Part shown: positions 10,727 to 54,169 of the stretch, piece by piece
Layout of the letters: each line of letters starts with the position of its first letter
Position numbering within the stretch: position 1 is the stretch's first letter
Source of the DNA: an uncultured Bacilli bacterium
Lineage (GTDB): Bacteria; Bacillota_I; Bacilli_A; RF39; UBA660
Assembly: GCA_934096735.1 (NCBI GenBank)
Contig: CAKOMS010000004.1
Location: 1-59,633 of the forward strand
Reading direction: 5' to 3'
DNA: 59,633 nucleotides
The notes under the pieces: model-generated
What the model was told of the DNA's origin: nothing
Database searches by the model: none
Seen by the model: only the letters and a program-made list of their open reading frames with translations
Program-made: the position numbers and the translations under genes

Positions 10727-13567
10727 TTAATTTGTATAAACAAATACATTACCAACATCTGATGCAACTCTATTTGAATAATTACCAGAAATATTTATAT
10801 CTTTATTAAGTAAATTATATTCTCTTATAATATTTCCATTATCACTTGTAATATTTCCACCAAAAATACTTATAGTTATTGGTTTTTCTACATTAGTCTT
10901 ACTAGCATAATGTCCATAATATGCATCATTTACTTCAACATAAATTGCATCCCCTGTTGGATTTATCTTACCAACAGTTTTTTCTAAATTAGCATCTAAT
11001 ACTTTTTCACCAAATGCTTTAATTTCTCCACCTGCAATATTTAATACTCCTAGTTTCATACCAACAACATTAAGACCACTTACAGTTCCACCATTAATAT
11101 TTACTGTCATATAACTTGGCATATAAATAGCAGTATCTCCATCAGCAGTAACAGTAGCACCATCATAAATATTTACAGTAGGATTTTGTTTATATTGACT
11201 ATCATAATTTCCGCTTATAGCAAATCTATTTCTAGAAATTACTGTGCCATAAACATCAATATTAATATTAGAACCAAATACAGATACTCCAATACCCATT
11301 GCATCAATAGTAACATCATCACTAATTACAAGTCTAGCATTATTAAAATCTGTAAAATCATCTTCTCCATCTCTAGTAGCACCATACTGAATAAGTCCAT
11401 AAGGAGAATCATCATAATTAACAATCTTACCATTTTTAATAGTTAATGTTTTACCTTCAAAACTATAAGCAAATAACATATTACTATTCATACTAGCAGA
11501 AATAGTATGACCATTTAAATTAAGAGTAGTATCTTTTATATAGTCAAAATATATGAGTTTATTAATAGTAAAATCAGAAAGTATATTCATTTCATTTGTA
11601 CTATTATCTTTCTTTAATTCATCAACTGCATAATTAATACTATTTGCATCATACTTAATACCATTAACTTCTAAAGCAGCTCTAGAAGTATCTGAATAAA
11701 CAAAAGCATTATTTTCTCTAGCTTCTCTAGTTTCATATATTCCAGCCATTTTAATATACTCTTGAGTAGTATTATATTCTCTTATTTTATTTCCAGAAGT
11801 ACTACTAATTTCTCCACCATTAACAGTAATGTTTATTGGACTTCCATTAGTATTCTTTTTATAATGATTATAATATCCATCACTAACTTCAACATAAATA
11901 GCATCACCAGTAGGATTAATTCCACCAGATTTTTCTTTTAAATCAGCATCATTAACATATTCTCCAACACCATTTACATGTCCACTAATAATATTTAATT
12001 CACCAAGTTTCATACCAATACCAGTTTTACCACTAACAGTTCCACCATTTACATTTACTTTCATATAACTTGGCATATATATAGCAGTTTCATTTTCTGA
12101 AGTAACATTAGCACCAACTAAAATATTAATTTCAGGATTTTGCATATATTGATTATAATAATTTCCACTTATAGCAAATCCATTTTGAGATTTAATAGTA
12201 CCAAAAACATCTAAAATTAAATTAGTACCCATTACAATAACACCTTGACCAACAGCATCTACTGTTAAATTATTTGCTAAAACAAGTTTTGCATTGTTAA
12301 AATCAGTAACATCATTTTCATCACTTGTTCTAGTTGCACCAAATGCAATAATACCATAATCACTATCTGCAGTATTTTTAATAGTACCATTATATATAGA
12401 TAATGCATTACCTGTAAAACTATAAATAAACATTAAATTATTATTACTAATATTTCCAGATATAGTATGACCACCTAAATCAATAGTTATATCTCTATTA
12501 TAAGAAATATTAATTCTTTCAGTAACTTCAACATCTCTAACTAAAGTTATATAACTATTTTTAGAATTATCAATAGCATCTTGTAAACTCTTATAATAAT
12601 TTATTCCATCAGTTGCTATAACATCAGGACTCAAAACTACATCAGAATTTTGTCTTAAATCATAAGAAACCAAATCATCTACAGACCATCCAAAACTAAA
12701 AGATATATTAGTTCCTAAATATTTTGGAGTTACTTTTAGTTTTATATCTCCATCTGTTAATTTTATTTTAATAGCCTTATTTCCAATTTCATTTTCATTA
12801 AATTCAACCCATTCAGTTCCATTAAAGTAGCTATAATTCATTGCAGAAGTATCCATTAATGTAAGTTCTTTACCTTCATAACTATTTGCTTTAACACTTA
12901 TTGTAAATTCATTTTCTTCATTTAAATACATTTCTTTAGGTAAATTTAAAGTGAACTTTGGAGCAATCTTAACAATTGGTTCATCAAGTTCATATTCAAA
13001 ATTAGCATTTTGATCAACTTTTGATAAATCTACTGTTGCATTAACACCTTCACTTGTAAAATAAAATCCACCTATCCAAGTAGCAGGTACTATAATTTTT
13101 CCATTTTCATATTTTGCTTTACCACTTGCTTGATTATAGGGAGAAATGGATCCCTCATCAATAATACCATCAAATGGTATTTCTAATTCTTTTTCTTTAT
13201 TATTAACAAAGAAAATATTTAAATTCTTTTCAACTTCTAAAGCTTCACTTTCAGTAAGTGGAGTTAGTTTTCCAGAATTAAGTTCAACTCTACTCCAACT
13301 TTCAGTTAAATCACTATAATAAAGTGTATCTACTTTAGTTGTATCAATATCATGATTAAGAGCAAGTTGAATTTTAGCTTCGTTCATACCAGCAATACCT
13401 GCAGCAGCAAAAGTTATAATAGTATCATTATCAAACTTTGTTCCACCAAAAATATAAACATCACCAGTATAAGAAGAACTACTTTCTTTAATAACACTAG
13501 CATTTACGTTAATAGTCATAAAAACACTTAAAACTAATACTAATATTATTTTCTTAATACATTTCAT
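10727..13567 (-). CDS. secreted 946-aa protein with two ~280-aa internal repeats, probably beta-helix-like
   Basis: Sec signal peptide (…TINVNA/SV); no LPXTG. The repeat core LNGHTIS...YG.I..GATR...D.TDFNNA.L....TVDA.G.GV...G.N...DV.GT...N.FAISGNY..QY.QNP occurs twice. Confidence 0.85.
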   Translation of the reverse strand: MKCIKKIILVLVLSVFMTINVNASVIKESSSSYTGDVYIFGGTKFDNDTIITFAAAGIAGMNEAKIQLALNHDIDTTKVDTLYYSDLTESWSRVELNSGKLTPLTESEALEVEKNLNIFFVNNKEKELEIPFDGIIDEGSISPYNQASGKAKYENGKIIVPATWIGGFYFTSEGVNATVDLSKVDQNANFEYELDEPIVKIAPKFTLNLPKEMYLNEENEFTISVKANSYEGKELTLMDTSAMNYSYFNGTEWVEFNENEIGNKAIKIKLTDGDIKLKVTPKYLGTNISFSFGWSVDDLVSYDLRQNSDVVLSPDVIATDGINYYKSLQDAIDNSKNSYITLVRDVEVTERINISYNRDITIDLGGHTISGNISNNNLMFIYSFTGNALSIYNGTIKNTADSDYGIIAFGATRTSDENDVTDFNNAKLVLANNLTVDAVGQGVIVMGTNLILDVFGTIKSQNGFAISGNYYNQYMQNPEINILVGANVTSENETAIYMPSYMKVNVNGGTVSGKTGIGMKLGELNIISGHVNGVGEYVNDADLKEKSGGINPTGDAIYVEVSDGYYNHYKKNTNGSPINITVNGGEISSTSGNKIREYNTTQEYIKMAGIYETREARENNAFVYSDTSRAALEVNGIKYDANSINYAVDELKKDNSTNEMNILSDFTINKLIYFDYIKDTTLNLNGHTISASMNSNMLFAYSFEGKTLTIKNGKIVNYDDSPYGLIQYGATRDGEDDFTDFNNARLVISDDVTIDAMGIGVSVFGSNINIDVYGTVISRNRFAISGNYDSQYKQNPTVNIYDGATVTADGDTAIYMPSYMTVNINGGTVSGLNVVGMKLGVLNIAGGEIKAFGEKVLDANLEKTVGKINPTGDAIYVEVNDAYYGHYASKTNVEKPITISIFGGNITSDNGNIIREYNLLNKDINISGNYSNRVASDVGNVFVYTN
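10814..11662 (-). repeat. internal coding repeat B (aa 636-918) of the 946-aa protein
   Basis: aligns by eye along its whole length with aa 321-599; both copies end ...GN.IREYN. Confidence 0.85.
11771..12607 (-). repeat. internal coding repeat A (aa 321-599) of the 946-aa protein
   Basis: see repeat B. Confidence 0.85.
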
Positions 13568-13585: not shown

Positions 13586-14590
13586 TTATTTTTCTAACCT
13601 AGCATTTCCAATACTTTTAATTTGGTTTTTGTTTGTAACATAACCATCCTTAGAAATCTTCTTAGTAATTACTTGACCACTAGTAGTTGTAATATCTAAA
13701 TAACCATCAACCTTTTCACCGTTCTTAGTTACATATAAAGTAGTTTGACCAACAATAGATGTTGCAATATCTTCTTTTAAATAGCTTATTACATCATTAT
13801 TCTTTGGTTCCTCAGGTTTAGTTGGTTCATCTGGAGCAACTACTGGAGTTTCAACCTTTTCCCATTTAGCTACTAAAGTAATATTTTTTACAACTTTTGA
13901 ATTAAAATTATATACTTTACCATCTAAATACCAACCCACAAACTTATAACCATCTCTAGTTGGATCTTTTGGTTTACTAACAGTTTTACCAGAAGTAACA
14001 CTAACATTTGAAATTTTACTTCCACCTTGTGTATCAAATTTAACTGTATATTTTGTAACTGTATTACTATTATTAGTTGTATTCTTTTCCCATTTTGCAG
14101 TAACAGTTTCATCACTAGTTATAGCACTTCCAACAGTAACTTCTTCATTATTCTTATTAAACCAACCTACAAACTTATAACCATCCTTAACAGGTGTAGG
14201 TAATTCTTTAATAACACCATTTTCTACAAGAATATCATTAACTGTACTACCACCATTTGAATCAAACTTCATAGTATAACTCTTTACAACTGTATTTCCA
14301 TCTTCTTTACTACTCCATTTAGCAACTAAAGTAATATCTTCTAGAACTGCCAAATCAAAATCATATAAAGTATCATTTAAATACCAACCAGAAAATACGT
14401 AACCATCTCTTGTAGGTTCACTTGGCTTACTTACTTTATCACCTTTTTTAACTTGAACACTACTTACAACAGATCCACCATTTGAATCAAATGTTACAGT
14501 ATATTTTTGCCCTTTTACAAAAAACACAGCACCAAGTATAGCAATAACTACTAATATTCCAATAATTACAAACGCACTTGACTTTTTCAT
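13586..14590 (-). CDS. membrane-anchored protein with three Listeria-Bacteroides (InlB B-type / Flg_new) repeats
   Basis: N-terminal TM; 3 x [Y.V.FD..GGS.....V..G..VSKP..PTRDGY.F.GWY........F......ITLVAKW]. Confidence 0.85.
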   Translation of the reverse strand: MKKSSAFVIIGILVVIAILGAVFFVKGQKYTVTFDSNGGSVVSSVQVKKGDKVSKPSEPTRDGYVFSGWYLNDTLYDFDLAVLEDITLVAKWSSKEDGNTVVKSYTMKFDSNGGSTVNDILVENGVIKELPTPVKDGYKFVGWFNKNNEEVTVGSAITSDETVTAKWEKNTTNNSNTVTKYTVKFDTQGGSKISNVSVTSGKTVSKPKDPTRDGYKFVGWYLDGKVYNFNSKVVKNITLVAKWEKVETPVVAPDEPTKPEEPKNNDVISYLKEDIATSIVGQTTLYVTKNGEKVDGYLDITTTSGQVITKKISKDGYVTNKNQIKSIGNARLEK

Positions 14591-24087: not shown

Positions 24088-24423
24088 TTAAAAGAGTGAT
24101 TTAATAACTTGAACAAATATTTTCATACCCTTTGTAGCCAAATTCTCAATGCCCTTAGTTACGCTATCCCCAAACTTAGAAAACTTATTAGAATAATCTT
24201 TTCTATCATCATCTAAAAAACTAGTAATAGATACTTCTTCCCCATTATTAATCTTTTCTTCAAACTTTTTTATTCCTTCCTCAGTTATTGTAGTCTTCTC
24301 TCTTATTTTAGTTTCATAATATCCACTAATATTTGCTATAAAAAGTGCAATATATATTATAAATAAAGCAACTAAAATCTTAAGTATAGGATGCAATTTC
24401 TTTTTTTTACCCATCATTATCAT
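24088..24423 (-). CDS. small membrane protein (1 TM)
   Basis: 111 aa, N-terminal TM; overlaps the spoIIP stop, suggesting co-transcription. Confidence 0.5.
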   Translation of the reverse strand: MIMMGKKKKLHPILKILVALFIIYIALFIANISGYYETKIREKTTITEEGIKKFEEKINNGEEVSITSFLDDDRKDYSNKFSKFGDSVTKGIENLATKGMKIFVQVIKSLF

Positions 24424-25363
24424 CCTTTATATATTTATATAAAATATCTGCAAAAACTTTAAGAGTATTATTAACTTCCGAAATATTATTATACTGTCCC
24501 CCAACTTCAACAAGTATCGTATTAGGATTAAAATCTTGATTATAAACTCCATTAACTTTTTTACCACTTTTCTTCATAATTCCTCTAAATAAATTAGGAT
24601 TATATTCTTTTATCAAATCAGCAAGTTTATTAGCCATTTCTAAATTACTTTCATAATTTTTATTATCAAGTCCAATAACAAATAATAATCTTGCATAATC
24701 TTCCCCATCAATATTAATAACTGTTTCTTTATAAACAGAAGAATCTCTATGAAAATCTATAAAATATTTTAAATTATTATTATTCTTATAAGCTTCTTCC
24801 ATAAACATTCTAGATACTTTATAACTATATCCATATTTTTTCTTTTTCTTTCTAACTTCATCTGCAATACTTTTTTCTTCTAAAGTAACTTTAATACCCA
24901 AATTTTCTAAATACTCCTTTAGTATTTTAGAAGCACTTTTAACAGTAGGTTTAATATTATATGGTTTTAACATACCACTACTATAAGCTTCTTCATCATG
25001 GGTACTATAAATATACACAATCGGATTGTCTAGATTATTTTCTTTATTAAGAACATTTTCTTTTATAACTGGTGAGTCATCATTATCACCATCATTATTT
25101 ATAACTACCTCATCTTTATTATTTAAAGAAAGATGATTACCAGTACTATATTTAAACAAAGTCTTTATATTAACAAAATTAGTATCAAAACTAAATAAAT
25201 TATTACTTAATAACGCTTGTATTATACCCTCTTCACCCATACGACTATTTTTATACAAATATTTCACTGAAAAAATAATACTTACAAAAAATAACATCAC
25301 AATTAAAATGAGTCTAGTATTTTTTTTTGCTTTAAATTTTCTCATAACATTCACCACATACAT
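24407..25363 (-). CDS. spoIIP: stage II sporulation protein P (SpoIIP family amidase/endopeptidase)
   Basis: N-terminal TM; IYSTHDEEAY, FIDFHRDS, ILVEVGGQYN motifs typical of SpoIIP. Confidence 0.8.
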   Translation of the reverse strand: MYVVNVMRKFKAKKNTRLILIVMLFFVSIIFSVKYLYKNSRMGEEGIIQALLSNNLFSFDTNFVNIKTLFKYSTGNHLSLNNKDEVVINNDGDNDDSPVIKENVLNKENNLDNPIVYIYSTHDEEAYSSGMLKPYNIKPTVKSASKILKEYLENLGIKVTLEEKSIADEVRKKKKKYGYSYKVSRMFMEEAYKNNNNLKYFIDFHRDSSVYKETVINIDGEDYARLLFVIGLDNKNYESNLEMANKLADLIKEYNPNLFRGIMKKSGKKVNGVYNQDFNPNTILVEVGGQYNNISEVNNTLKVFADILYKYIKDDNDG

Positions 25364-26796: not shown

Positions 26797-27750
26797 ATGA
26801 AAAAATATATATTACCTCTTTTCTGCTACTTATTTATACTACTAGCATTATTTAATATAAATAAAATAACAGATTATTTAGCAAAAAGTTTATCTGGTAG
26901 TCATAAATTAACAATCGAAAAAGGAAATGATTACACAAAAGATTATGATTTTTTATTTTTACAAAATAGTAAAGATTATATACCTTATTCATATAGTGAT
27001 TTACTTAACATAGTTTATAGTGTCATAAATCAAGGATGGAATGAATTTACCTTTTATTGTCCTAGTGAATATGCAGATTGTGTTAAGGATATAACAAAAC
27101 TTACTAAAGATGAACTAACACTTACTCACGTAAACAACTTTGTACATCCATTCAATAGTTTTAATACTCTAAGTACAAGTATTACAGAGTCTGGTGAAAT
27201 AACTTTAAATATTAAATATTTATATACAAAAAAAGAAATAGATTATATAAATAATTATATAAATACTACTATTATTGATTTAATAAAAGATACGAATGAC
27301 GACTACGAAAAATTAAAAAAAATACATGATTATATAATAAATAATACTAAATATGATATAAAAAGAAATGATTCAGGAGAAAGTGATTATGAATCTTATA
27401 ATGCTTATGGTACTATTAAAAACGGTTATGCAACATGTAATGGATATGCAGATTTAATGGCCATTATATTATCTAAATTAAATTATGAAAATTATAAAAT
27501 AGCCACTACTAAAGAAGAAATAAGCTATGAATCTAATGGACATATTTGGAATGCTGTAAAAATTGATAATAAATGGAAACATTTAGATCTTACTTGGGAT
27601 GATCCCGTAGGAAAAGATGGAAAAGACTATTTATATCATAAATATTTCTTAGTATCAACTGAAGAATTAATTGCATCAGATGCTGGTAATGTAAACATTG
27701 AAGAACACAATTTTAACAAAGCAATTTATATGGAATTTAAAAACAGTTAA
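26797..27750 (+). CDS. membrane-anchored transglutaminase-like (cysteine protease fold) protein
   Basis: catalytic-triad-like GYATCNGYADL ... GHIWNAV ... DLTWDD; N-terminal TM. Confidence 0.8.
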   Translation: MKKYILPLFCYLFILLALFNINKITDYLAKSLSGSHKLTIEKGNDYTKDYDFLFLQNSKDYIPYSYSDLLNIVYSVINQGWNEFTFYCPSEYADCVKDITKLTKDELTLTHVNNFVHPFNSFNTLSTSITESGEITLNIKYLYTKKEIDYINNYINTTIIDLIKDTNDDYEKLKKIHDYIINNTKYDIKRNDSGESDYESYNAYGTIKNGYATCNGYADLMAIILSKLNYENYKIATTKEEISYESNGHIWNAVKIDNKWKHLDLTWDDPVGKDGKDYLYHKYFLVSTEELIASDAGNVNIEEHNFNKAIYMEFKNS

Positions 27751-27772
27751 TTATTCGTTAACTGTTTTATTT
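27738..27772. terminator. bidirectional terminator between convergent genes
   Basis: AACAGTTAA-7 nt loop-TTAACTGTT with T-runs on both strands; overlaps both stop codons. Confidence 0.7.
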
Positions 27773-30163
27773 ATTTTCTTTATAAAATTTAATTGTAGCA
27801 AAACCATTTGTATTATTAGCACCAGATACCTCATTAATTAACTCTGCACTACTATCTACATAATTACTTCCACCATTACCAGAATTATAAGCCGTTACTG
27901 CAGTATCACAGCCATATTTACAAGTATTACTTCCTGTATAACAATTACTACAATTCTTATCTACGTAGCCACCCCTACATGTATTACTTCCAGATTTACA
28001 ACTATCATATACTGAATCACACCCATATTTACAAGTATTACTTCCAGTATAGCAATTACTGCAATTCTTATCTTCATATCCACCTTTACATGTATTTCTT
28101 CCAGTCTTACAACTATCCCATACTTTCTTATATTCTTTACAATACTTAATTTGATGATCTACTATACAAGAACCATTTGTAGTACCTCTCCATTTACAAC
28201 CTTCCCTATTATTACAAGCACTTTTAGTAGAAAGTCCACAACTAGGATTTTTCTTACCCCAAGTCTTACATTCTGAAGTGGTTTTATATCCACCCTTACA
28301 TGTATTACTTCCAGTTTTACAACTATTCCATACCGAATCACATCCATATTTACAAGTATTACTTCCAGTATAGCAATTGCTACAATTCTTATCTACATAA
28401 CCACCGGTACAAGTATTGCTTCCAGTTTTACAGCTATCCCAAACTGAATCACATCCATATTTACAAGTATTACTTCCAGTATAACAGTCACTACAATTAG
28501 TTTTATAAGTATAATTATAGCCAGACCCTCCACCAGAGCCATTTAATCCATCAACACCAGACCCTCCATTAGTTCCAGTTCCACCACTACTAGCGCCACC
28601 TTTTCCAGTACCAGATCCACCTGGAGTACCATTTTGGCCACCGCCACCACCAGCAGCAATTAAAATATTTTTACTATTAAGTCTTATAGTAGTAGCACCT
28701 CCACCATTATAAAGACCAGACCCTCCACCATTATAACCATTAACACCACCAGTATTAATAATGACAGTTTCACCTTTTTTCAAATATACATAAGCAGAAA
28801 CTCTACCACCATTTCCACCATTACCATTACCCTTAGCACCATTAGCACTAATAATATAATAACCAGTATAAGGAACTTCATAAGTTTGCGTGCTTTCTAA
28901 ATAATTAAACGTATTATCTTCTCCTACATAAACAACTTTACAAACAGTATTTGCATTTATATTATCAATACTAAACACATTATTACCTTTATAAGATACT
29001 ACTTGATTATTAGTACAACTAACAGATTTAAATACTGAATTATTTAATGGATTAACACTAAATTCTTTACTTTCACCTTCAAAAACATCAAAACTACTAT
29101 CTCCTACTAGAGTTCCACCACTAACCTCTAAAGAAACATTATATTTTCTATAACTTAAAGTAATTTTACAATCCATATTACTATTAACGTCTTTTACTAT
29201 AAAATTATTACCAGATACAACACCATTACAACTATTCTCGCTTAAACTCATTCCATAACCTTCATAAGGTACAATAGTAAATGTAGCATTTCCTCCTTTA
29301 TTAACATTTTGAGGATTTGTACTAGTAGTATTTCCATTTAAAACATTTAAACGAACACTATAAATAATTGGATTACCTGATGAAGTAAATGTTATATTAT
29401 CTGTAGGACTATAACTATCACCACTTAAATAAGTTTTACCATTACCTTGCCAAGTAGTACTTATTGTATAACCAGATAAAGGTATTGGAGTAGGTAAAAT
29501 AAATGAATTTCCTTCCATAGTAAGAACTCTTTGTACACTAACACTTCCATTAGTAACTTTAAAAATACTTTCATAAAAATTCTTTTTTATTGTAGTAACT
29601 TCATCATAACTATCTTTTACTGAAAAATAATACTCACCTGGAATAGTTATTTCACTTTCCATATTATATTCAAACATCTCTTCATCTAATTTTATATATT
29701 CAACATCTTCTTCTAAAGGATTACTCATTCCAAAATAATAATAATTAACATTTTCTTTATCACTTGCACTTAAAGAAGCCGTTTGTTTTTCAAAAACATT
29801 ATTAGTACTAGCAAATGCAAGCAAAGAATCATTATTTTTATCAAAATACAAATAGCAGTATAAAGTGATATCAGTATCTACTATAACATTACCATTTACA
29901 TATTTCATTTGAACTTCTACCTTTTTATTATCATCATCAATACAACCAGATAATTCTCTATTAAATATATATCCTTTCTTAGGTATACTATCACTATTTA
30001 TATAATTATTATCTCCATCATTTATCATAATAGCATACATATTATTTGAGCTATCTTTATAATTCATTTCTAAAATATTATTATTAATACTTTTAAAACT
30101 TAAAAATACAAATATAATTTCAAAAATAACTAAAACTAAAATTAAAACTTTACTTTTTTTCAT
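27767..30163 (-). CDS. signal-anchored 798-aa surface protein: paralog-shared N-terminal region, glycine-rich domain, nested Cys-rich repeats
   Basis: N-terminal TM; aa ~30-415 homologous to the upstream 501-aa gene; aa 418-798 glycine-rich domain (YEVPYTGYY.ISA.GAKG...GGGATTIRL....LIAAGGGGG...NGFATIKF) with a 199-aa Cys-rich insert. Confidence 0.85.
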   Translation of the reverse strand: MKKSKVLILVLVIFEIIFVFLSFKSINNNILEMNYKDSSNNMYAIMINDGDNNYINSDSIPKKGYIFNRELSGCIDDDNKKVEVQMKYVNGNVIVDTDITLYCYLYFDKNNDSLLAFASTNNVFEKQTASLSASDKENVNYYYFGMSNPLEEDVEYIKLDEEMFEYNMESEITIPGEYYFSVKDSYDEVTTIKKNFYESIFKVTNGSVSVQRVLTMEGNSFILPTPIPLSGYTISTTWQGNGKTYLSGDSYSPTDNITFTSSGNPIIYSVRLNVLNGNTTSTNPQNVNKGGNATFTIVPYEGYGMSLSENSCNGVVSGNNFIVKDVNSNMDCKITLSYRKYNVSLEVSGGTLVGDSSFDVFEGESKEFSVNPLNNSVFKSVSCTNNQVVSYKGNNVFSIDNINANTVCKVVYVGEDNTFNYLESTQTYEVPYTGYYIISANGAKGNGNGGNGGRVSAYVYLKKGETVIINTGGVNGYNGGGSGLYNGGGATTIRLNSKNILIAAGGGGGQNGTPGGSGTGKGGASSGGTGTNGGSGVDGLNGSGGGSGYNYTYKTNCSDCYTGSNTCKYGCDSVWDSCKTGSNTCTGGYVDKNCSNCYTGSNTCKYGCDSVWNSCKTGSNTCKGGYKTTSECKTWGKKNPSCGLSTKSACNNREGCKWRGTTNGSCIVDHQIKYCKEYKKVWDSCKTGRNTCKGGYEDKNCSNCYTGSNTCKYGCDSVYDSCKSGSNTCRGGYVDKNCSNCYTGSNTCKYGCDTAVTAYNSGNGGSNYVDSSAELINEVSGANNTNGFATIKFYKENK
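27902..28498 (-). repeat. coding Cys-rich repeat cassette (aa 556-754; 30 Cys)
   Basis: four copies of NCS[DN]CYTGSNTCKYGCD and four of (V[WY][DN])SCK[TS]G[SR]NTC.GGY, plus a unique 8-Cys middle piece. Near-identical DNA stretches recur (catatttacaagtattacttcc...caatt) at ~27912, ~28024, ~28344, ~28455. Confidence 0.9.
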
Positions 30164-30176
30164 ATTACACCACTAT

Positions 30177-31682
30177 TTAACCATTATAAGTAATTTCTAT
30201 TTCACATTCCATATCTTTAGTAACATTACTTAATGTATATGTCATTTTGCCATTTGCTCTAGTAAATGTTCCTCCACAAGAATTTACATTCAAGTATGAA
30301 TTATACAAATTATAATTATCATCTGTATACACACTAAATACTGCATTTTCTCCATAATTAACATTCATACTTTCAAAAGCATTTACAACTCCTCCTCCAG
30401 TATAACGTCTTCCAGCAATAAGTGTTACTTTAAAAGTCTTCTTCTTTAATATTAAAGTACAGGAAGTATCAGCTATAATATTAGAAATTACATAATTTTT
30501 ACCATTAAATGTTCCTCCACAAGTATCGTTTGATGCTACATAATCATAACCTTCTTTTGGATTTATTACATATGTTGCACTTCTTCCATGTTCTATTGTT
30601 TGTGGATTTGTACTACTTGTTGTAGCATTACCTAAACTTATTCTAAATGTATAAGTTTTCTTTTTAAGTGTTATTGTACAATTTTTTTCCGATGTAACAT
30701 TACTTACTGTATAAGTTGATCCTGATAATGTTCCACTACATGTATCGCTTGCCAAAATTAAATCATATCCAGTATTTGGTATTATTGCAAACGTTGCAGA
30801 TTTACCGTGTAATACAGATTGTGGATTTATACTTGTTGTAGTTCCATTTACTACTGTTAAAGTTACATTATAACTGCTTACATTTGTATTTGCAGATAAA
30901 GTAGAATTAGTTGCTGGCATATATGTACTTCCACTTGCATAACTTTTTCCATTACCCCTCCAAGTTGTATCTATAGTATATCCAGCATTCGCTTTAGGCG
31001 TAGGTAAAATAAATGAATTTCCTTTTAAAGTTATAACACTTGTTGTTGTTACTGTTCCATTTTCCACACTAAATTTTGTTTCAAAAAATTCTTTATTTAT
31101 AGTAGTAACATCACCATAATTATCTTTTACTGAAAAATAATATATACCAGATGCACTAACTTGTACGTTCTTATTTAAACTATTAGAAGAAACACTTACA
31201 TAAGTAACACTACTACTAGAAGGATTTTCAGTACCAAAATAATAACCAACTAATCCATCATCATCACTAGCATTTAAAGTAACAGTTTGACTTTGAGATA
31301 CATTATTTGTAGATGTAATTGATAAACTTGATTGATTATTCATATCAAAATATAAAAAACACTCCATATTTTTAGTAGTAAGAGCACTAACTTTTCCATT
31401 TAAATATTCTATATCAATATCTAATTTATTATTATTACTATCAACACATACTGATTTATTTTTATTAAATGTATAACCAGAAGTAGGAAAAGTACTAGAT
31501 TCATTATAATTACCATTATTATCTTGAATCATAACAGCATAATAACTTCCATCAACAAGAGTTTTTTCTACTATCTCTAATTCTTTATTATTATCTTTAT
31601 TATCTAATTTTTTTTCATCCAAAAAAATGATATTTAAAAAAGCTAAAGTAACAACTATTATATTTACTACATACCTCTTCAT
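30177..31682 (-). CDS. signal-anchored 501-aa surface protein, paralog of the downstream gene, with three ~72-aa Cys-pair Ig/B-repeat-like modules
   Basis: N-terminal TM; shared blocks (YYFSVKDNYGDVTTINKEFFE, GNSFILPTP, GYTIDTTWRGNGKSY). Modules follow Y.VTL.V.NGTTTS.NPQ....G.SAT..I.P..GYD.....D.C.GT..G..Y..SN.....C.I.LKKKT. Confidence 0.85.
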   Translation of the reverse strand: MKRYVVNIIVVTLAFLNIIFLDEKKLDNKDNNKELEIVEKTLVDGSYYAVMIQDNNGNYNESSTFPTSGYTFNKNKSVCVDSNNNKLDIDIEYLNGKVSALTTKNMECFLYFDMNNQSSLSITSTNNVSQSQTVTLNASDDDGLVGYYFGTENPSSSSVTYVSVSSNSLNKNVQVSASGIYYFSVKDNYGDVTTINKEFFETKFSVENGTVTTTSVITLKGNSFILPTPKANAGYTIDTTWRGNGKSYASGSTYMPATNSTLSANTNVSSYNVTLTVVNGTTTSINPQSVLHGKSATFAIIPNTGYDLILASDTCSGTLSGSTYTVSNVTSEKNCTITLKKKTYTFRISLGNATTSSTNPQTIEHGRSATYVINPKEGYDYVASNDTCGGTFNGKNYVISNIIADTSCTLILKKKTFKVTLIAGRRYTGGGVVNAFESMNVNYGENAVFSVYTDDNYNLYNSYLNVNSCGGTFTRANGKMTYTLSNVTKDMECEIEITYNG

Positions 31683-33885: not shown

Positions 33886-35529
33886 ATGAATAAAGAACTT
33901 ACTGATAAATTATTAAACAAAATAGCAGAATTTGAAGATGCTAATAAAGAGTTAGAAAGTGAAGCAAAAATCTTAAGAAGAATGAGTAAAAGCGGTGCTT
34001 ATTCTGAAAGAGATAAGAAAAGATTCATAAAAAGTTTAGAAGAACTTGAAAATGAACTTGCTTATAATAAAGGTCAAATTGAAGTTTTAAATGATTTCTT
34101 AACTAATGATAAACGATTAAAAGAAATTGAAGAATTAGTTGACGAACTAAAACTTACTGACCCATCTGATACTGAAGTACGTGAAGAGTTAAAAGGAAAA
34201 TTATTAAAACTTGCAGGTGCTACAAAAAAAGATGTTTCTGAAAATATAATTGATTCTTTAGGGTTATCTGAAGAAGATACTGAAGCATTAAAAAAAGACT
34301 TTGAAGAATTTTACAAAGAAACACAAGAAGAATTAAAAGAATTAAAAATAGTATCTAAATATACAAGTAATAAAAAAATTGAAGCAAGAAAAGATGAATT
34401 AACAGAATTAATTACTACTTTAGATGATATTAGAGGTACAAATGACTTTAGTGGTAAGCTTAAAGAAGCTATTGAAAAAAATGCTAGCGATGATGAATTA
34501 GAAGCATTAGTTATAGAAGCAATTAAAAATAACAATGAAGAAGCTACTATTGGTCTTGCTATTGCTGATGGAAAAATAGAAAATCAAGAAGAAGAACTTG
34601 GCGAAGAAGAAGAAAAAGTAAAAACTAAAAAGTCTTCTAAAGGTAAAAAAGGAAAAGAAAAAAGCGAACTTGCTAAAAAGATTGCAAAAATATTTGGAGT
34701 TTCTGCTCTAGCTGTTGCTTTATTAATAGTAGGTTCAAAAGTTATAAAAAGTATAAAAGATTCTAAACCACAAGATTTAGAAGATGAAGATAAAGTAATT
34801 GAAAGTATTGAAGAAGAAAAAAGCATTGAAGATACTATAAATGATGCATACATGAATGAATATGCTGAAATAGCTGCTCTTAAAAATATTACTATGGAAA
34901 AAGCAGTTAATTATGTAAACAGAGCTCATTTATTAATGGAATCTGGATTATTTACTAATTATTCATATGATGACATTGTAGAAATACTAATGGCTATTCA
35001 AGATAATACAATACTTAAAAATGATTCTGAAGGTTTAAATGCTGCTCTACTTACAAAAGCACTAACTGAATTTAATGGAATTCATAACGAATACCAAAAT
35101 GGTAACGGATTAAATGAAGAAGGGCTTAAAAAAGTTGCTGGACTTAAATATTTAGCAAAAGAAGGAACTGATTTAAGAACTTTCTTAAATGATTATGTAG
35201 TATTATCAGGTAATGTTTTAAAAACAAAAGATAATAAGAGTGAAAAAGCTCAAATGTATAACTATTTAGATACTTTTGCAAAAACTTCACTAGGTAATAC
35301 TGATGGCATTACAATAAATGATAGTAATAAATCAGCTGTAATCAAAAACGATTTTGAATGGAATATAGCATATCAATTATTTGCTTATCCATTAATTCCT
35401 GATTATTGCGACTTCTCTACTGAAGAATTAGCAGCTGATTGGGAATGCTTACAAATTAACTTATTAAGTAATTATGAACACTGGGTTGAACTTGAATGTG
35501 ATGAAGAAATAACTTTAGGAGGTAGATAA
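33886..35529 (+). CDS. bitopic membrane protein: ~260-aa acidic coiled-coil N-terminus, Lys-rich juxtamembrane, one TM, ~260-aa alpha-rich C-terminal domain
   Basis: E/K-rich heptad-like text; KTKKSSKGKKGKEKSELAKKIAKIF then GVSALAVALLIVGSKVI; no family recognised. Confidence 0.8.
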   Translation: MNKELTDKLLNKIAEFEDANKELESEAKILRRMSKSGAYSERDKKRFIKSLEELENELAYNKGQIEVLNDFLTNDKRLKEIEELVDELKLTDPSDTEVREELKGKLLKLAGATKKDVSENIIDSLGLSEEDTEALKKDFEEFYKETQEELKELKIVSKYTSNKKIEARKDELTELITTLDDIRGTNDFSGKLKEAIEKNASDDELEALVIEAIKNNNEEATIGLAIADGKIENQEEELGEEEEKVKTKKSSKGKKGKEKSELAKKIAKIFGVSALAVALLIVGSKVIKSIKDSKPQDLEDEDKVIESIEEEKSIEDTINDAYMNEYAEIAALKNITMEKAVNYVNRAHLLMESGLFTNYSYDDIVEILMAIQDNTILKNDSEGLNAALLTKALTEFNGIHNEYQNGNGLNEEGLKKVAGLKYLAKEGTDLRTFLNDYVVLSGNVLKTKDNKSEKAQMYNYLDTFAKTSLGNTDGITINDSNKSAVIKNDFEWNIAYQLFAYPLIPDYCDFSTEELAADWECLQINLLSNYEHWVELECDEEITLGGR

Positions 35530-35530
35530 T

Positions 35531-37339
35531 ATGTATACTGAAGAACCAAGAAGAGAAATTAACTGGGGAAACTTTATAAAAAAAGGTTTAGTAGCATTAT
35601 TTATCTTAATATTAATATTCTTATTAATATGGTCATTTACTAGAAAAGAAAGTCATGGGGTTGATGTTGATTATAACAACAATAATAATCAAAATATAAA
35701 TAGTAATTTAGATGATGCCAAAACATATTCCGAAATATTCATCTCTAACTATAGATACTTACATGATACTGCAAAAGAATATTTCTTAATTAGTGAATTA
35801 CCAAGTAATGGTAAAACAATTAAATATACATTACAAGAATTAATTAATAAAGGATTAATAATTCCATTTAGTTATACTAATGGTAAATCTTGTGATACTG
35901 AAGCAAGTTATGTAACTGTTAAAAATGTTGATGGAAAATATACTTATACCGTTACATTAGTATGTGGTACTGAAGTTGCTACTACTACTGAAGAATTAGG
36001 ATGTAATCAATTATGTAATGGTAAGTCTTGCGATAACAATAATACTCCATCTAAAGATGATACAAAAAAACCAAAAGAAACTGTAAAAGAATATGAATAT
36101 CAATATAAACAAGCTTATAAAGCAAATGAAGCTACTTATACTTGTCCATCTGGATATACTAAAGTAGGAAGTGGTTCAAGTACTAAATGTGTTAAATCAT
36201 CAAGTGATGTTAAAAAGGCAGATGTAACAGTTAAATATTACTGTCCTGAAGGATATACTCATACTAGTGGATCTGATGCTAATATGGTTTGTTCAAAAGG
36301 TAAAAATGAAACAACAAAACCTACTGAAAAAGTAACATATACATGTAAAACAGGATATACACTTAAAGGTAATGAATGCTATAAAACTACTAATGCAACA
36401 ACAAATGTAACTTATAGTTGTCCTACTGGATACAAGAAAAATGGTAACATTTGTACAAAAGAATCTGTAGATACAATTATAGCCAATGTAGATTACACTT
36501 ATACTTGTCCATCTGGATACACTAAAAATGGTACTAAATGTACTAAATACGTTTCTGGTACTACAGTATCTCCAATAAAGAGCACAACAAGTTACTGTTC
36601 AAATGGTACTAAAGAAGGAAATTCATGTGTTTACTACTACTATAGTAAAACATATACATCAAAAAATAGTTGTACTTATATAGGTACAGTTACAAATTAC
36701 TGTGAAAACGGTTCATGTAATAAATTAAGATACAAATATAAATGTACAACTGGTATTTCTAGTAAAGACACTTATACTTGTCCATCTGGTTCTACTCACG
36801 TAAGTGGATCTGGTGCTAACATGGTTTGTAAAACAAGCGGTGGAAACAAAACAATAAATGCTACTGAAAATCCAAACTACAGTTGTCCAAGTGATTATGA
36901 ATTAAATGGAACAAATTGTACTAAGACAGAAACACTAGAAGAAAATGTAAGTAAATCATGTCCTACTGGATATATAATGAATGGAGACAAATGTGTAAAA
37001 ACAACTAATGATAAAATATCAGCAACTAAGACAGTTAATTACACTTGTCCATCTGGTTCTACTCACGTAAGTGGATCTGGTGCTAATATGGTTTGTAAAG
37101 TTAGCGAAGCATCAAATAAAGGACCAATTAAAAATACAACTTACACTTGTCCATCTGGTTATGAAAAAGTTGGAAGCGGATCAGATTCACAATGTGTAAA
37201 GAAATCTAGTGAATCAATTAGTGCAACTAAAACAACTAAATCAGTAACTAAATATAGATATAAATGGAGTAAAGAAACTTCACTTAAAGGTTGGACAAAA
37301 ACTGGAAAATCAAGATTAGTTACAGCAAGCGCTAAATAA
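35531..37339 (+). CDS. signal-anchored 602-aa protein with about 11 Cys-pair repeats (Y.CP.GY...G..C.K)
   Basis: ATG starts 1 nt after the upstream stop, with the GGAGG RBS inside the upstream gene's 3' end; N-terminal TM. Repeats include YTCPSGYTKVGSGSSTKCVK, YSCPTGYKKNGNICTK and YTCPSGSTHVSGSGANMVCK (x2). Confidence 0.8.
   Translation: MYTEEPRREINWGNFIKKGLVALFILILIFLLIWSFTRKESHGVDVDYNNNNNQNINSNLDDAKTYSEIFISNYRYLHDTAKEYFLISELPSNGKTIKYTLQELINKGLIIPFSYTNGKSCDTEASYVTVKNVDGKYTYTVTLVCGTEVATTTEELGCNQLCNGKSCDNNNTPSKDDTKKPKETVKEYEYQYKQAYKANEATYTCPSGYTKVGSGSSTKCVKSSSDVKKADVTVKYYCPEGYTHTSGSDANMVCSKGKNETTKPTEKVTYTCKTGYTLKGNECYKTTNATTNVTYSCPTGYKKNGNICTKESVDTIIANVDYTYTCPSGYTKNGTKCTKYVSGTTVSPIKSTTSYCSNGTKEGNSCVYYYYSKTYTSKNSCTYIGTVTNYCENGSCNKLRYKYKCTTGISSKDTYTCPSGSTHVSGSGANMVCKTSGGNKTINATENPNYSCPSDYELNGTNCTKTETLEENVSKSCPTGYIMNGDKCVKTTNDKISATKTVNYTCPSGSTHVSGSGANMVCKVSEASNKGPIKNTTYTCPSGYEKVGSGSDSQCVKKSSESISATKTTKSVTKYRYKWSKETSLKGWTKTGKSRLVTASAK
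36776..36832 (+). repeat. 57-nt coding direct repeat, copy 1
   Basis: identical to 37043..37099 except one C/T difference. Confidence 0.9.
37043..37099 (+). repeat. 57-nt coding direct repeat, copy 2
   Basis: see copy 1. Confidence 0.9.
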
Positions 37340-48555: not shown

Positions 48556-49113
48556 TTAATAACCTTTCTTTTTATAATAATGAAACAATTCCTCAAATCT
48601 ATTATAATGAATTATTTCCCTTTGCCTTAAAAATAAAAGTGGCCCTAAAACATCAGCATCAGTTGTTAAATCTATTAAATTTTCATAAGTAGCTCTCGCT
48701 TTTTGCTCTGCAGCCATATCCTCAGCAATATCAGCAAGTGGATCTGCAGTTACAGCAAAATATTGTGAAGTAAAAGGAACACCACTAGCATCTATTGGAT
48801 AAATACCTTTATTATGATCAGCATAATAACTTCCAAGTCCAGCCTCTTCTAATTCTTCTACAGTAGCATCTTTAATAAGTTGTCTTACCATAGTAGATAT
48901 CATTTCACAATGACCAAGTTCTTCAGTAGCAATATCGTTTAATAAACTCTTACCAAAATCATCTGGCATACTAAATTTTTGACTAAAATATCTCATCGCT
49001 GCTCCAAGTTCACCATTCGCACCACCGAATTGTGTAATTAAATATTTGGCCATTTTTAAATCTTTCTTACTAATATTTATAGGATAATTAGTATGCTTAA
49101 CATATTTAAACAT
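48556..49113 (-). CDS. cotJC: spore coat protein CotJC (manganese-catalase/ferritin-like); start re-called to ATG 49113
   Basis: MFKYVKHTNYPI...AKYLITQFGGANGELGAAMRYFSQ...TEELGHCEMI matches CotJC; ATG overlaps the cotJB stop (ATGTTTAA). Confidence 0.88.
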   Translation of the reverse strand: MFKYVKHTNYPINISKKDLKMAKYLITQFGGANGELGAAMRYFSQKFSMPDDFGKSLLNDIATEELGHCEMISTMVRQLIKDATVEELEEAGLGSYYADHNKGIYPIDASGVPFTSQYFAVTADPLADIAEDMAAEQKARATYENLIDLTTDADVLGPLLFLRQREIIHYNRFEELFHYYKKKGY

Positions 49114-49540
49114 AGATATTACCCCTTTCATTATCCCATGGCCAAGGACTATCTATCCATTTAAACTTATCCCCCTTAGTATCACATACATCTAGTGGAC
49201 CATATAAAGAAATATATTTTTCTTTAGCACTCTTTTCTTCCATAATAAGTTTTTCTAATAATTTTAAAACTTTTTTATCTTGTGGATGTAAATCAAGATA
49301 TAAATTCAAATCATTTATTGCAAATGAATAAGACATTACATTTAAAAGTTTAGCTTCTCTATCACTTTTAGGAGTAATATCTAAAAAAGTTAAGTTTTTA
49401 TATGGCTCATATTCATCTTTAAACATATTACCTCTTAAAAATCCTTCTTTTACAGATAATATATCCACATCTTTATCACTTATAATATTAGATAAACTCA
49501 AAAAATTTAAATCAATTACATCATCATTATCAAATAACAT
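49106..49540 (-). CDS. cotJB: spore coat protein CotJB with N-terminal CotJA-like extension
   Basis: CotJB core FAINDLNLYLDLHPQDKK...YGPL. It is 144 aa against ~87 aa for B. subtilis CotJB; N-terminal L..G.MF...YEPYK resembles the CotJA motif. Confidence 0.75.
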   Translation of the reverse strand: MLFDNDDVIDLNFLSLSNIISDKDVDILSVKEGFLRGNMFKDEYEPYKNLTFLDITPKSDREAKLLNVMSYSFAINDLNLYLDLHPQDKKVLKLLEKLIMEEKSAKEKYISLYGPLDVCDTKGDKFKWIDSPWPWDNERGNIYV

Positions 49541-51901: not shown

Positions 51902-54169
51902 CTACTCTTCTTCATCACTTTTTAACTTCTTTAAAACTTCTCTAGGTTTAGATCCATTTTGAGGTCCTACTATTCCTCTTGCTTCTAATAAATCTATCAT
52001 TCTAGCAGCTCTATTAAATCCAAATCTAAACTTTCTTTGAATTAAAGATGCACTAATCTTACCAGTTGAAATAGCAAACTCAACTACTTCATTATACATA
52101 GGATCATCATATCCATCACTACCATTACCACTTCCAGAAGAACTATTTGAAGTAGCAGTTTGTAAACTTATATCTTCATCATATTTAGCAGTACCTTGCT
52201 TACATACATAATTAATAAGTCTATTAATTTCATCATCAGATATAAAACATCCTTGAATTCTCTCAGGAGTATTTTCTCCCATCGGTAAAAATAACATATC
52301 TCCTTTACCTAAAAGCTTTTCAGCTCCAGCCATATCAAGTGCAGTTCTAGAATCAATTTGACTTGCTACAGCAAAACATATTCTAGATGGAATATTTGCT
52401 TTTACTACACCAGTAATAACATCTGTTGATGGTCTTTGAGTCGCTACTATTAAATGAATTCCTGCAGCTCTAGCCATTTGAGTAATTCTCATAATTGAAT
52501 CTTCTACTTCTTTTGATGCAACTAACATTAAATCTGCAAGTTCATCGATAATTACAACAATATAAGGCATCTTACTTATAGGACTATCTGGATTTTTTCT
52601 ATTTTCTTTTTCAATATGTTCATTATATTCACTAATTTTTTTAACTCCTGCTTCACTAAAAGTATCATATCTTTTTTCCATTTCAGCCACAATTCTTTGT
52701 AATGTAATTGAAGCTTTTTTAGGGTCAGTTACAACTGGGCAAAGCAAATGAGGTATTCCATTATAATTTGATAACTCTACTTTTTTAGGATCCACTAATA
52801 CAAGTTTAACATCTTTAGGATTATAATTCATAAGTATAGAACAAATAATTGAATTAGTACAAACAGATTTACCACTACCAGTAGAACCTGCAACAAGTAA
52901 ATGTGGCATTTTAGTTAAATCTGCAACAATTGGCTTACCCATTAAATTCTTTCCTAAAGTAACCATTATTCCATATTTATCTTTATCTGCATTGTTAGAA
53001 GCAAGTATTTCTCTAAAAGCAACTGCACTAATATTTTCATTAGGTATTTCTATACCAATAGTACTCTTTCCTGGTATAGGAGCCTGTATTCTTACATCTT
53101 TTGCAGCAAGTGCTAAAGCAATTTCTTTATTTATTGAAAGAATTCTACTAACCTTTGTTCCAGCAGGTACAACTATTTCATATTGTGTAACAGCAGGACC
53201 TATATGAATCTCAACGACTTTTGCAGATATTTGAAAATCTTTTAATACTTTTTCAAGTATTGTTTTATTATTAAGAGTATAACTATCATTAACATTCTTT
53301 TTATTATTTTTTATTTCATTTAATAGTGATAATGGTGGAAGTTTATAAGAACTTAAATTATTATCACTACTAGTATCCGGAATAACAATTGGTTCTTTAA
53401 CTTCAACTTCACTCATTACATTTTTATTTCTAACTTCTTCTAAACTTGTAATAATAACTGGTTCATTTTTTTCAACAGTTTCATATTTTTCTGGAATTTT
53501 TTTAACTTCTTCTTCAACTTCAACATTTTCATCTTCTGAAGAAATTTGTGCTTCTCTAATTCTTTCTCTTTTAACAAATGATTTAATTTTACTAAATACA
53601 TCATCAAGAGTAATATTAAGCAACATTATAAGTCCAAAAATAAATACCACAGATAACACTACAATCGTACCAGTCTTAGCAAAAAGAAAATATAAACCTG
53701 ATAAAAAAACTGCTCCAACAAGTCCACCACCTATAGCAATTGAAGTGTCGCCTGAATTAAGTATTGAATTAGATACATCAATTGTATTTATTCTATCCAT
53801 AAACATATCAAATGTCATTTTAAGTATTTCAGAAGGACTTCCAATTTTATCTAAAAAAGTAAAATGACTAGCAACTAAAATAACAATCACTATTAAATAA
53901 AAACCAATAAGTTTTGATGAAAAAAATCTTGGCATCTTTCTTTTTAAAAGCATATATAAACCAATAAATAAAATATATATTACAAATACTATCCACCAAG
54001 AACCAAATAAAAACATAGCAAATTCTTTAATAATAGTACCAACATAACCAAATCCAAAACCGATAATTCCAATTAAAACAAGAATCAAACCAGTTAATTC
54101 TACACTCATACCAACACTATTACTATCTTTTGATTTCTTTCTCTTTGCCATATTTACCACCATATTCAT
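51902..54169 (-). CDS. ftsK: DNA translocase FtsK/SpoIIIE
   Basis: 4-5 N-terminal TM, linker, motor domain with Walker A GSTGSGKS, C-terminal gamma wHTH; the start may be the internal MAKRKK. Confidence 0.95.
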   Translation of the reverse strand: MNMVVNMAKRKKSKDSNSVGMSVELTGLILVLIGIIGFGFGYVGTIIKEFAMFLFGSWWIVFVIYILFIGLYMLLKRKMPRFFSSKLIGFYLIVIVILVASHFTFLDKIGSPSEILKMTFDMFMDRINTIDVSNSILNSGDTSIAIGGGLVGAVFLSGLYFLFAKTGTIVVLSVVFIFGLIMLLNITLDDVFSKIKSFVKRERIREAQISSEDENVEVEEEVKKIPEKYETVEKNEPVIITSLEEVRNKNVMSEVEVKEPIVIPDTSSDNNLSSYKLPPLSLLNEIKNNKKNVNDSYTLNNKTILEKVLKDFQISAKVVEIHIGPAVTQYEIVVPAGTKVSRILSINKEIALALAAKDVRIQAPIPGKSTIGIEIPNENISAVAFREILASNNADKDKYGIMVTLGKNLMGKPIVADLTKMPHLLVAGSTGSGKSVCTNSIICSILMNYNPKDVKLVLVDPKKVELSNYNGIPHLLCPVVTDPKKASITLQRIVAEMEKRYDTFSEAGVKKISEYNEHIEKENRKNPDSPISKMPYIVVIIDELADLMLVASKEVEDSIMRITQMARAAGIHLIVATQRPSTDVITGVVKANIPSRICFAVASQIDSRTALDMAGAEKLLGKGDMLFLPMGENTPERIQGCFISDDEINRLINYVCKQGTAKYDEDISLQTATSNSSSGSGNGSDGYDDPMYNEVVEFAISTGKISASLIQRKFRFGFNRAARMIDLLEARGIVGPQNGSKPREVLKKLKSDEEE

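Follow-up and report, generated by a model that had tools for sequence, protein, structure and literature searches.

A two-armed cysteine-rich cassette nested in the ALK/LTK-type glycine-rich domain of a predicted surface protein from an uncultured Bacilli bacterium

Analysis of a 59,633-nt stretch of DNA from an uncultured Bacilli bacterium (assembly GCA_934096735.1, contig CAKOMS010000004.1; GC content ~26%), hereafter the window, revealed a gene on the reverse strand (27767..30163 in the list of open reading frames, ORFs) that encodes a predicted modular surface protein of 798 residues, plus the stop codon. The C-terminal region of this protein is a glycine-rich domain (GRD) of the ALK/LTK type, and nested inside it is a cassette of 199 residues (aa 556-754; 27902..28498) that holds 30 of the protein's 36 cysteines. 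The cassette is an autonomous bacterial module, found in this same GRD loop in some proteins and at the C-terminal end of modular type IV pilins in others. An initial annotation had described the 798-residue ORF, the 30 cysteines, the four plus four repeat units, the spacing C-x2-C-x6-C-x3-C-x6-C-x6-C and the glycine-rich flank motifs, all of which were confirmed from the sequence.

The protein begins with a signal-anchor (aa 1-25; 30089..30163; here and below, coordinates within the gene refer to the reverse strand), recognised in the sequence as MKKSK followed by an 18-residue hydrophobic stretch. This N-terminus (MKKSKVLILVLVIFEIIF) has neither a class III (prepilin) motif nor an obvious signal-peptidase I site, and the segment is predicted to remain as an uncleaved anchor. 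The adjoining N-terminal scaffold (aa 26-260; 29384..30088) is common to a paralogue encoded upstream and to proteins with other C-terminal heads; in the homologues P0002, P0006 and P0064, the scaffold region is present and the GRD is missing. Next come two beta modules resembling InlB B-repeats (Flg_new_2-like; aa 261-410; 28934..29383), taken as spacers, whose matches to PF18998 are all below the cut-off of 23.6 bits (11.4 bits and E=0.33 here, 17.8 bits in the paralogue and 23.0 bits in the homologue P0012); a periodic pattern, Y.V.L.V.NG...S..P..V..G..A.F...P..GY, is readable across these residues. The GRD follows in two parts, an N-terminal part (aa 411-555; 28499..28933) of beta strands and polyglycine segments, assigned by AlphaFold2 (AF2), phmmer and Foldseek, and a C-terminal part (aa 755-798; 27770..27901) comprising the final three beta strands; these complete the TNF-like sandwich in the AF2 model, and phmmer matched them to homologue C-termini. 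The cassette between them consists of an N-arm (aa 556-629; 28277..28498), a head (aa 630-680; 28124..28276) modelled by AF2 as a six-cysteine mini-domain, and a C-arm (aa 681-754; 27902..28123) that unit parsing revealed as the mirror of the N-arm.

The identification of the GRD relied on homologues and on structure prediction. The intact protein had no match in NCBIfam or in Pfam (none to PF12810, ALK_LTK_GRD, at E<=1), because the insert and compositional bias mask the domain, and PF12810 did not match the N-terminal part of the GRD alone. By phmmer, this N-terminal part matched homologue GRDs with E-values from 1e-13 to 1e-43 (9.4e-28 for P0058 and 1.5e-30 for P0060), and P0058 passes the PF12810 gathering cut-off of 24.5 bits, scoring 32.6 bits with an alignment that spans positions 7-241 of the 243-position profile. 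PF12810 was found in three of seven close homologue GRD segments (best E 6.5e-6), and precomputed PF12810 matches were available for P0058-P0060, P0062, P0063 and P0070, but not for P0061. An AF2 model of aa 411-798 was confident on both sides of the insert, with a predicted local distance difference test score (pLDDT) of 90-98 at model residues 10-145 and of 83-98 at residues 345-388. In this model, strands from both sides of the insert form one sandwich, such that the fold closes around the cassette; the insert is bracketed by adjacent strands (model residues 141-148 and 341-347), and the last three strands lie at residues 341-347, 363-373 and 378-385. Foldseek comparison of the model with the PDB returned ALK/LTK GRDs as all of the top 21 matches (probability 1.0, E 2.6e-5 to 1e-3), the next match having an E-value of 0.43. 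At the level of sequence, the excised GRD had no match in the PDB, and a GRD profile, A2, matched only C. elegans ALK (E=0.31). In sum, the assignment of the C-terminal region as an ALK/LTK-type GRD with the cassette nested inside is solid, and the 798-residue protein belongs to a known, functionally unstudied bacterial branch of PF12810.

The cassette is built from two unit types in the order A-B-A-B, head, B-A-B-A, an arrangement far too regular to be due to chance. The four A units, NCS[DN]CYTGSNTCKYGCD, carry four cysteines each, the four B units, SCK[TS]G[SR]NTCxGGY, carry two each, and the head carries six in the spacing C-x9-C-x7-C-x5-C-x9-C-x8-C, giving 16+8+6 = 30; the middle piece had initially been credited with eight. 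When the cassette was modelled alone by AF2, the sole confident part was aa 625-684 (cassette residues 70-129, the head plus the innermost arm strands; pLDDT 84-92), in which two long strands bracket a helix and a beta hairpin. Foldseek found no fold match in the PDB for this confidently modelled head (best E 6.9), and the cassette sequence matched no Pfam family at E<=10 (furin-like, EGF and variant surface protein (VSP) families included), no NCBIfam family and no PDB sequence. Searches of the literature on PF12810 in bacteria, on polyglycine with pilins and on Cys-rich pilin modules found no description of the cassette family. The cassette is an unannotated, rare domain family of distinctive architecture.

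Examination of 72 homologues of the 798-residue protein showed that ~50 carry a Cys-rich segment at the identical GRD site, between GGGGSGYNY.Y and Y.SG.GG.N. These inserts range from 63 to 268 residues and from 10 to 38 cysteines. Every one of the 49 homologues that could be parsed, in 22 length classes, had an even number of cysteines in the insert, often one not divisible by four (10, 14, 18, 22, 26, 30 and 38). An exhaustive HMMER search of 1.84 billion cluster representatives with the cassette alone gave 22 matches at E<=1e-3, of which two were spurious and ~20 credible, and the module is therefore rare. This search answered the question, raised initially, of whether the cassette exists elsewhere by itself: it occurs in the GRD loop of homologues and at type IV pilin C-termini, and it corresponds to no common, already annotated bacterial repeat family. 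The two matches judged spurious, P0090 and P0093, are Ala-rich repeat proteins ('AIADAVWDEARSGHTTAGTFG' repeated many times) with no cysteine in the repeat, which match the cassette with E-values of 1e-6 to 1e-4 by way of a VWD..(S/T)G..T.G-like motif; these matches probably reflect chance similarity between repeats, with a smaller possibility that the Ala-rich repeat is a Cys-free relative of the cassette unit.

In its second context, the cassette lies at the extreme C-terminus of large proteins that have a prepilin motif and several Ig-like domains and end in ...GGFNLN. These include the PF07963-positive pilins P0081, P0082, P0085 and P0095; the cassette was also found in the fragments P0076, P0079, P0080 and P0096. 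The head type of the 798-residue protein recurs in the pilins P0082 and P0074 and in P0096, with the spacing in P0082, C-x9-C-x7-C-x5-C-x9-C-x9-C, differing only in its last gap (x9 versus x8). Judging from these sequences, arms and head evidently moved between contexts as one unit. The gene for P0012, a pilin-type protein with both GRD and cassette, is immediately preceded by genes for T2SSF and a prepilin peptidase (A24) and is followed by hrcA-grpE-dnaK-dnaJ (locus L033, 7441..12307).

By architecture (Sec signals, prepilin leaders and Flg_new repeats), the relatives look bacterial. The named genomes with GRD and cassette are uncultured gut metagenome-assembled genomes (MAGs) only, namely 'uncultured Bacilli bacterium' from Hadza and Nepali samples, Clostridium sp. 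CAG:1000 and a 'Mollicutes bacterium' MAG; more distant relatives with the GRD only were found in Lachnospiraceae, Acetatifactor and Muribaculaceae MAGs. An initial GTDB scan that used the 798-residue protein alone gave no relatives, and a scan with a pattern from alignment A2 found relatives in MAGs only. The family occurs only in uncultured gut lineages (Bacilli/RF39-like MAGs and Clostridium sp. CAG:1000), and its members are therefore candidate host- or mucus-adhesins of poorly known members of the microbiota. CAG:1000-like genomes carry GRD-plus-cassette tandem paralogues with different heads (P0004 followed by a 643-residue ORF; locus L004, 7310..11718, and locus L001, 8001..10300), followed by a conserved lipoprotein of ~127 residues (LSGC lipobox, two cysteines) that has no counterpart in the window. 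In P0088 (639 residues), the head itself consists of about six tandem SSCGCASYKSC repeats, another type of Cys repeat nested between the arms.

Comparison of the cassettes revealed a common plan of k units, a variable Cys-rich head of 11-200 residues and k further units, with a unit core of C-x2-G-x3-C (CxTGxNTC). Unit counts in the two arms were matched, at 1/1, 2/2, 3/3, 4/4 or 5/5, as obtained with a core-only parser and inspection of P0082, P0092 and P0096, a stricter parser undercounting the units adjacent to heads. Each unit was then given a two-digit code (upstream, downstream) for an extra cysteine three residues upstream (NCSxC) and four residues downstream (xYGC). With this code, the arms follow a mirror-complement rule in which the unit at C-arm position k+1-i, facing N-arm position i, has the two digits of the N-arm unit in reverse order ('ba' opposite 'ab'). 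The N-arm of the 798-residue protein reads 11 00 11 00 and its C-arm 00 11 00 11. The corresponding pairs are 10 11 and 11 01 for P0013/P0016; 10 10 11 and 11 01 01 for P0084; 01 01 00 and 00 10 10 for P0085; 10 11 00 and 00 11 01 for P0088; 01 00 10 10 and 01 01 00 10 for P0082; 00 10 and 01 00 for P0079/80/89; 01 00 and 00 10 for P0076/94; and 01 00 10 and 01 00 10 for P0096. All cassettes of mixed unit type obey the mirror-complement order and none the parallel order; P0083 contains '00' units only. The rule was set on a first batch of homologues, and later, independent hits (out-of-sample) agreed with it. Given the arm compositions, the chance of the observed unit orders is ~1 in 31,000 by our calculation. 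This pattern in the sequences suggests that the two arms pair antiparallel, and the two long strands that flank the head in the cassette-only AF2 model are in line with such pairing.

With confidence a little better than even, we favour a reading in which the 798-residue protein is a Sec-exported, membrane-anchored surface protein and a GRD loop hosts a disulfide-laddered antiparallel stalk that presents the head, the whole acting as an adhesin or receptor-binding protein. Together with the signal-anchor, a scaffold built of beta-rich modules resembling B-repeats would carry the C-terminal GRD, a TNF-like beta sandwich plus polyglycine-II (PGII) lattice, and a hairpin loop between two adjacent sandwich strands would host the autonomous Cys-rich module, consisting of two arms of four ~16-21-residue units (CxTGxNTC core) around a six-cysteine head of ~50 residues. 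From their always-even number, the cassette cysteines are predicted to form disulfides that would cross-link the antiparallel arms rung by rung, with the extra upstream cysteine of an NCSxC unit bonding the extra downstream cysteine of the facing xYGC unit. The outcome would be a rigid stalk, its length set by the number of unit pairs, which would keep the head clear of its GRD platform. Ligand binding and its specificity would reside in the head, and in the GRD loop generally, as the tip, and the carrier would serve a gut-type Firmicute as an adhesin or receptor-binding protein, with relatives displaying the cassette on type IV pili.

The adhesive function is suggested by analogy: modular pilins are established adhesin carriers (PMC8179133). 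Carriers of the cassette are predicted to be extracellular throughout, having a signal-anchor and B-repeat-like spacers in the 798-residue protein, cleavable Sec signals in the CAG:1000-like group and prepilin leaders in the others. A GRD loop that is hypervariable in length and head type, together with tandem paralogues bearing different heads, fits the logic of an adhesin or receptor-binding protein. As a more tentative generalisation, which we hold to be possible rather than probable, the cassette may represent an undescribed, self-complementary two-armed cysteine zipper, its length tuned by paired gain or loss of units, that serves as a distal module of type IV pili and anchored surface proteins in uncultured gut Bacillota and extends a small variable head to ligands of host or microbial origin. 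More remotely still, the order seen in animal ALK/LTK, where a Cys-rich domain follows the GRD, could derive from bacterial or phage GRD proteins of this kind.

These findings tie a fold famous from animal ALK/LTK to bacterial cell-surface and pilus biology and mark one GRD loop as a hot-spot for inserted binding modules. The cassette family has a clear, testable structural rule, mirror-complementary arms with an always-even number of cysteines; if the rule holds, the cassette would be a natural, length-adjustable rigid spacer of interest to protein designers. The question is also raised of how strict or near-strict anaerobes would oxidise ~15 extracellular disulfides.

Several observations weigh against the proposed architecture. 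On excision of aa 556-754, PF12810 emerged at 18.6 bits (E=0.0021), below the cut-off, so that membership of this family, as given in the initial annotation, is upheld by the fold, the Foldseek matches and homologues that pass the threshold but not by the Pfam score of the protein itself. TM-scores to ALK are low (0.18-0.24) because the insert, which AF2 did not resolve, makes up half of the model. The arms had a pLDDT of only ~30-40 in both AF2 designs (aa 411-798 and the cassette alone), and the antiparallel ladder derives from sequence patterns only. Concerning the pairing rule, P0081 is an exception with 6 versus 8 units, and the stricter unit parser fails on degenerate units beside heads, other parser failures involving degenerate head-adjacent units or truncated proteins. 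It is unusual for a strict anaerobe to have many disulfides outside the cell, and the ~32 window ORFs scanned showed no thiol-disulfide oxidoreductase (Dsb-like). Finally, the 798-residue protein is itself no pilin, and pilus machinery is absent from the same ORFs.

A first alternative leaves the architecture unchanged and replaces the disulfides by metal sites: the cysteines would coordinate Zn or Fe in the manner of Giardia VSPs or zinc ribbons, with the core cysteines of facing units forming a Cys4 site per rung. CxxC and Cx3C spacings are typical of metal-binding motifs, a rung of two plain units holds exactly four cysteines (as in P0083), and the organism is probably an anaerobe in whose scanned ORFs no Dsb-like gene was seen. 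Against metal sites stand the insert cysteine counts, always even and often not multiples of four, and the extra cysteines, which are complementary single residues on facing units and form a pairwise rather than a four-ligand pattern; co-conserved His or Asp residues were not seen. We consider metal binding unlikely.

The repeated DNA of the cassette raises the possibility of a contingency or antigenic-variation device, in which frequent recombination among repeats would, within populations, alter stalk length or turn the gene on or off. Tandem Repeats Finder identified direct repeats with a 111-nt period whose copies match at 87%, unit number varies across the family from 1 to 5 per arm (6 versus 8 in P0081), and different heads are found on tandem paralogues. 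Contrary to the first description, the DNA copies fall short of near-identity: A-type units share 87-89% identity and B-type units 73-83%, and the longest exact repeat is 38 nt. Moreover, a syntenic orthologue from another metagenome (P0001, locus L032) shares 94% identity and keeps the 4+4 layout at a synonymous divergence (dS) of 0.12, with a ratio of nonsynonymous to synonymous divergence (dN/dS) of 0.21 for the whole gene and 0.13 for the cassette. This purifying selection and the retained 4+4 layout indicate that the coding gene is being maintained and that the repeat is not in decay. Viable change also seems to require a matched change in both arms, which simple slippage does not supply, and copy number in the family varies in matched pairs. 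Such a device appears quite improbable, and rapid expansion or contraction by recombination, as initially suggested, is not supported.

We find it very improbable that the 798-residue protein is a type IV filament subunit or tip protein, or a prophage receptor-binding protein, rather than an anchored adhesin. Some homologues with GRD and cassette are bona fide prepilins beside pilus genes, and the GRD matches phrog_7388 (E=1.6e-11), its fold being common in phage and giant-virus proteins without an assigned function (BFVD). However, the 798-residue protein has no PF07963 match at E<=1 and no G-F-T-L-x-E motif, and the scanned ORFs of the window are chromosomal housekeeping genes, neither pilus (T2SSE, T2SSF or A24) nor phage genes having been seen among them. 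A tblastn search of a phage collection gave no match, and a scan of IMG/VR gave one weak locus. Least probable of all is that the cassette is a eukaryote-like repeat of the furin, EGF or VSP type, possibly horizontally acquired and peculiar to this protein, since its superficial likeness in CxxC spacing and cysteine density, and the EGF-like Cys domain beside the GRD in ALK/LTK (PMC10605310), are outweighed by the lack of any Pfam match at E<=10, PDB sequence match or Foldseek match with E<6, and by ~20 credible relatives among the 1.84 billion representatives that look bacterial, with named GRD-relative genomes that are gut MAGs. A spore-coat role, considered for reasons of Cys-rich coat proteins and the nearby SpoIIP, was rejected in view of the Sec-type anchor and of homologues that are pilins or Sec-signal proteins.

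Upstream of the 798-residue gene lies the paralogue (30177..31682, reverse strand), which encodes 501 residues comprising the N-terminal scaffold and B-repeats, with neither GRD nor cassette, and which is conserved in L032. The two proteins are 41% identical across 379 residues. Only 13 nt separate the paralogue stop codon from the start of the 798-residue gene, and the two genes are probably co-transcribed; a GTGGTG Shine-Dalgarno-like motif lies 6 nt 5' of the downstream ATG. Directly 3' of the stop codon is an AT-rich hairpin, AACAGTTAA-CGAATAA-TTAACTGTT, followed by a T run (27739..27766, reverse strand), possibly a bidirectional terminator that serves both the 798-residue gene and a convergent transglutaminase-like gene (26797..27750). 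A scan for consensus terminators did not call this hairpin, because its stem has too few G-C pairs.

The ORFs scanned in the window include dnaK/dnaJ/hrcA, penicillin-binding protein (PBP) genes, mraY, SpoIIP, rpsT, miaA, polynucleotide phosphorylase (PNPase), infB/nusA, an FtsK/SpoIIIE-family gene and a CotJC-like Mn catalase; an Rfam scan found two tRNAs only. The genes for the CotJC-like Mn catalase (48556..49131), SpoIIP (24407..25363) and the FtsK/SpoIIIE-family protein (51902..54169), all on the reverse strand, suggest that the source organism sporulates, and a spore-former is plausible. In contrast to these sporulation genes, the closest cassette-bearing relatives are small-genome 'Bacilli/Mollicutes' MAGs. 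The window also encodes an unrelated Cys-rich surface protein of 602 residues (35531..37339, forward strand), transmembrane (TM)-anchored, with ~12 TYTCPSGYTK.G..C.K repeats and only a sub-domain Sushi-like Pfam match; it is preceded by a 547-residue acidic coiled-coil protein with one TM segment (33886..35529, forward strand), and the pair is conserved in L032. A 946-residue Sec-signal protein with an internal duplication of ~300 residues and no Pfam family (10727..13567, reverse strand) adjoins a 334-residue protein with three Flg_new repeats (13586..14590, reverse strand), both lying between two PBP genes near mraY.

Among known systems, the 798-residue protein is best classed as a variant, of putative function and from a small family, among modular surface and pilus adhesin modules. 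Its GRD has the same class of fold as the ALK/LTK GRD (PF12810; PDB 7NX1, 7LIR, 7LS0 and 7N00), in which a TNF-like beta sandwich is accompanied by a poly-Gly (PGII) segment, and the two have in common the motifs Y.VP.TG.Y..A.GA.G, GGGA(T/S) and AAGGGGG and a Cys-rich module at the C-terminal end of the domain. ALK and LTK are receptor kinases, whereas the present carrier is a predicted bacterial surface protein, and we know of no ALKAL-type ligand in bacteria. In ALK, the Cys-rich part is EGF-like and follows the GRD (PMC10605310), whereas here a non-homologous repeat module stands before the last three strands.

The modular type IV pilins, represented by PilB and PilC of Streptococcus sanguinis, offer a second comparison. 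In PilB the grafted C-terminal module mediates adhesion, and modular pilins present their binding module at the pilus tip (PMC8179133). The relatives P0012, P0058, P0081, P0082, P0085 and P0095 likewise carry GRD and/or cassette as a C-terminal module, but modular pilins have a class III signal peptide, which the 798-residue protein lacks. The words 'glycine' and 'cysteine' are both absent from the main text of that study.

In the phage T-even/S16 adhesin Gp38, conserved Gly-rich motifs form a rigid PGII core and hypervariable segments decide the receptor (PMC12032242). The GRD studied here would work alike, with its hypervariable loop of 63-268 residues between GGGGSGYNY and YNSGNGG, and the likeness is a functional one only: Gp38 structures were not among the PDB Foldseek matches of the GRD model, and no homology was detected. 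The loops of Gp38 are four-residue turns, whereas the GRD loop here is a 200-residue Cys-rich domain with probable disulfides. The polyglycine-II sandwich of the Gp38 adhesin was reportedly treated by Dunne in 2018, in work cited in the Gp38 paper.

Finally, short Cys repeats give stiff, disulfide-stabilised rods in the furin-like/EGFR Cys-rich (CR) domains, the Cys-rich domains (CRDs) of TNFR and the Cys-laddered beta-helices of insect antifreeze proteins. The cassette has no sequence or fold match with these rods; its short repeats of two to four cysteines are expected to yield a similarly stiff, extended rod. The known rods are single-chain tandem stacks, whereas the cassette appears to be a two-arm hairpin with complementary arms.

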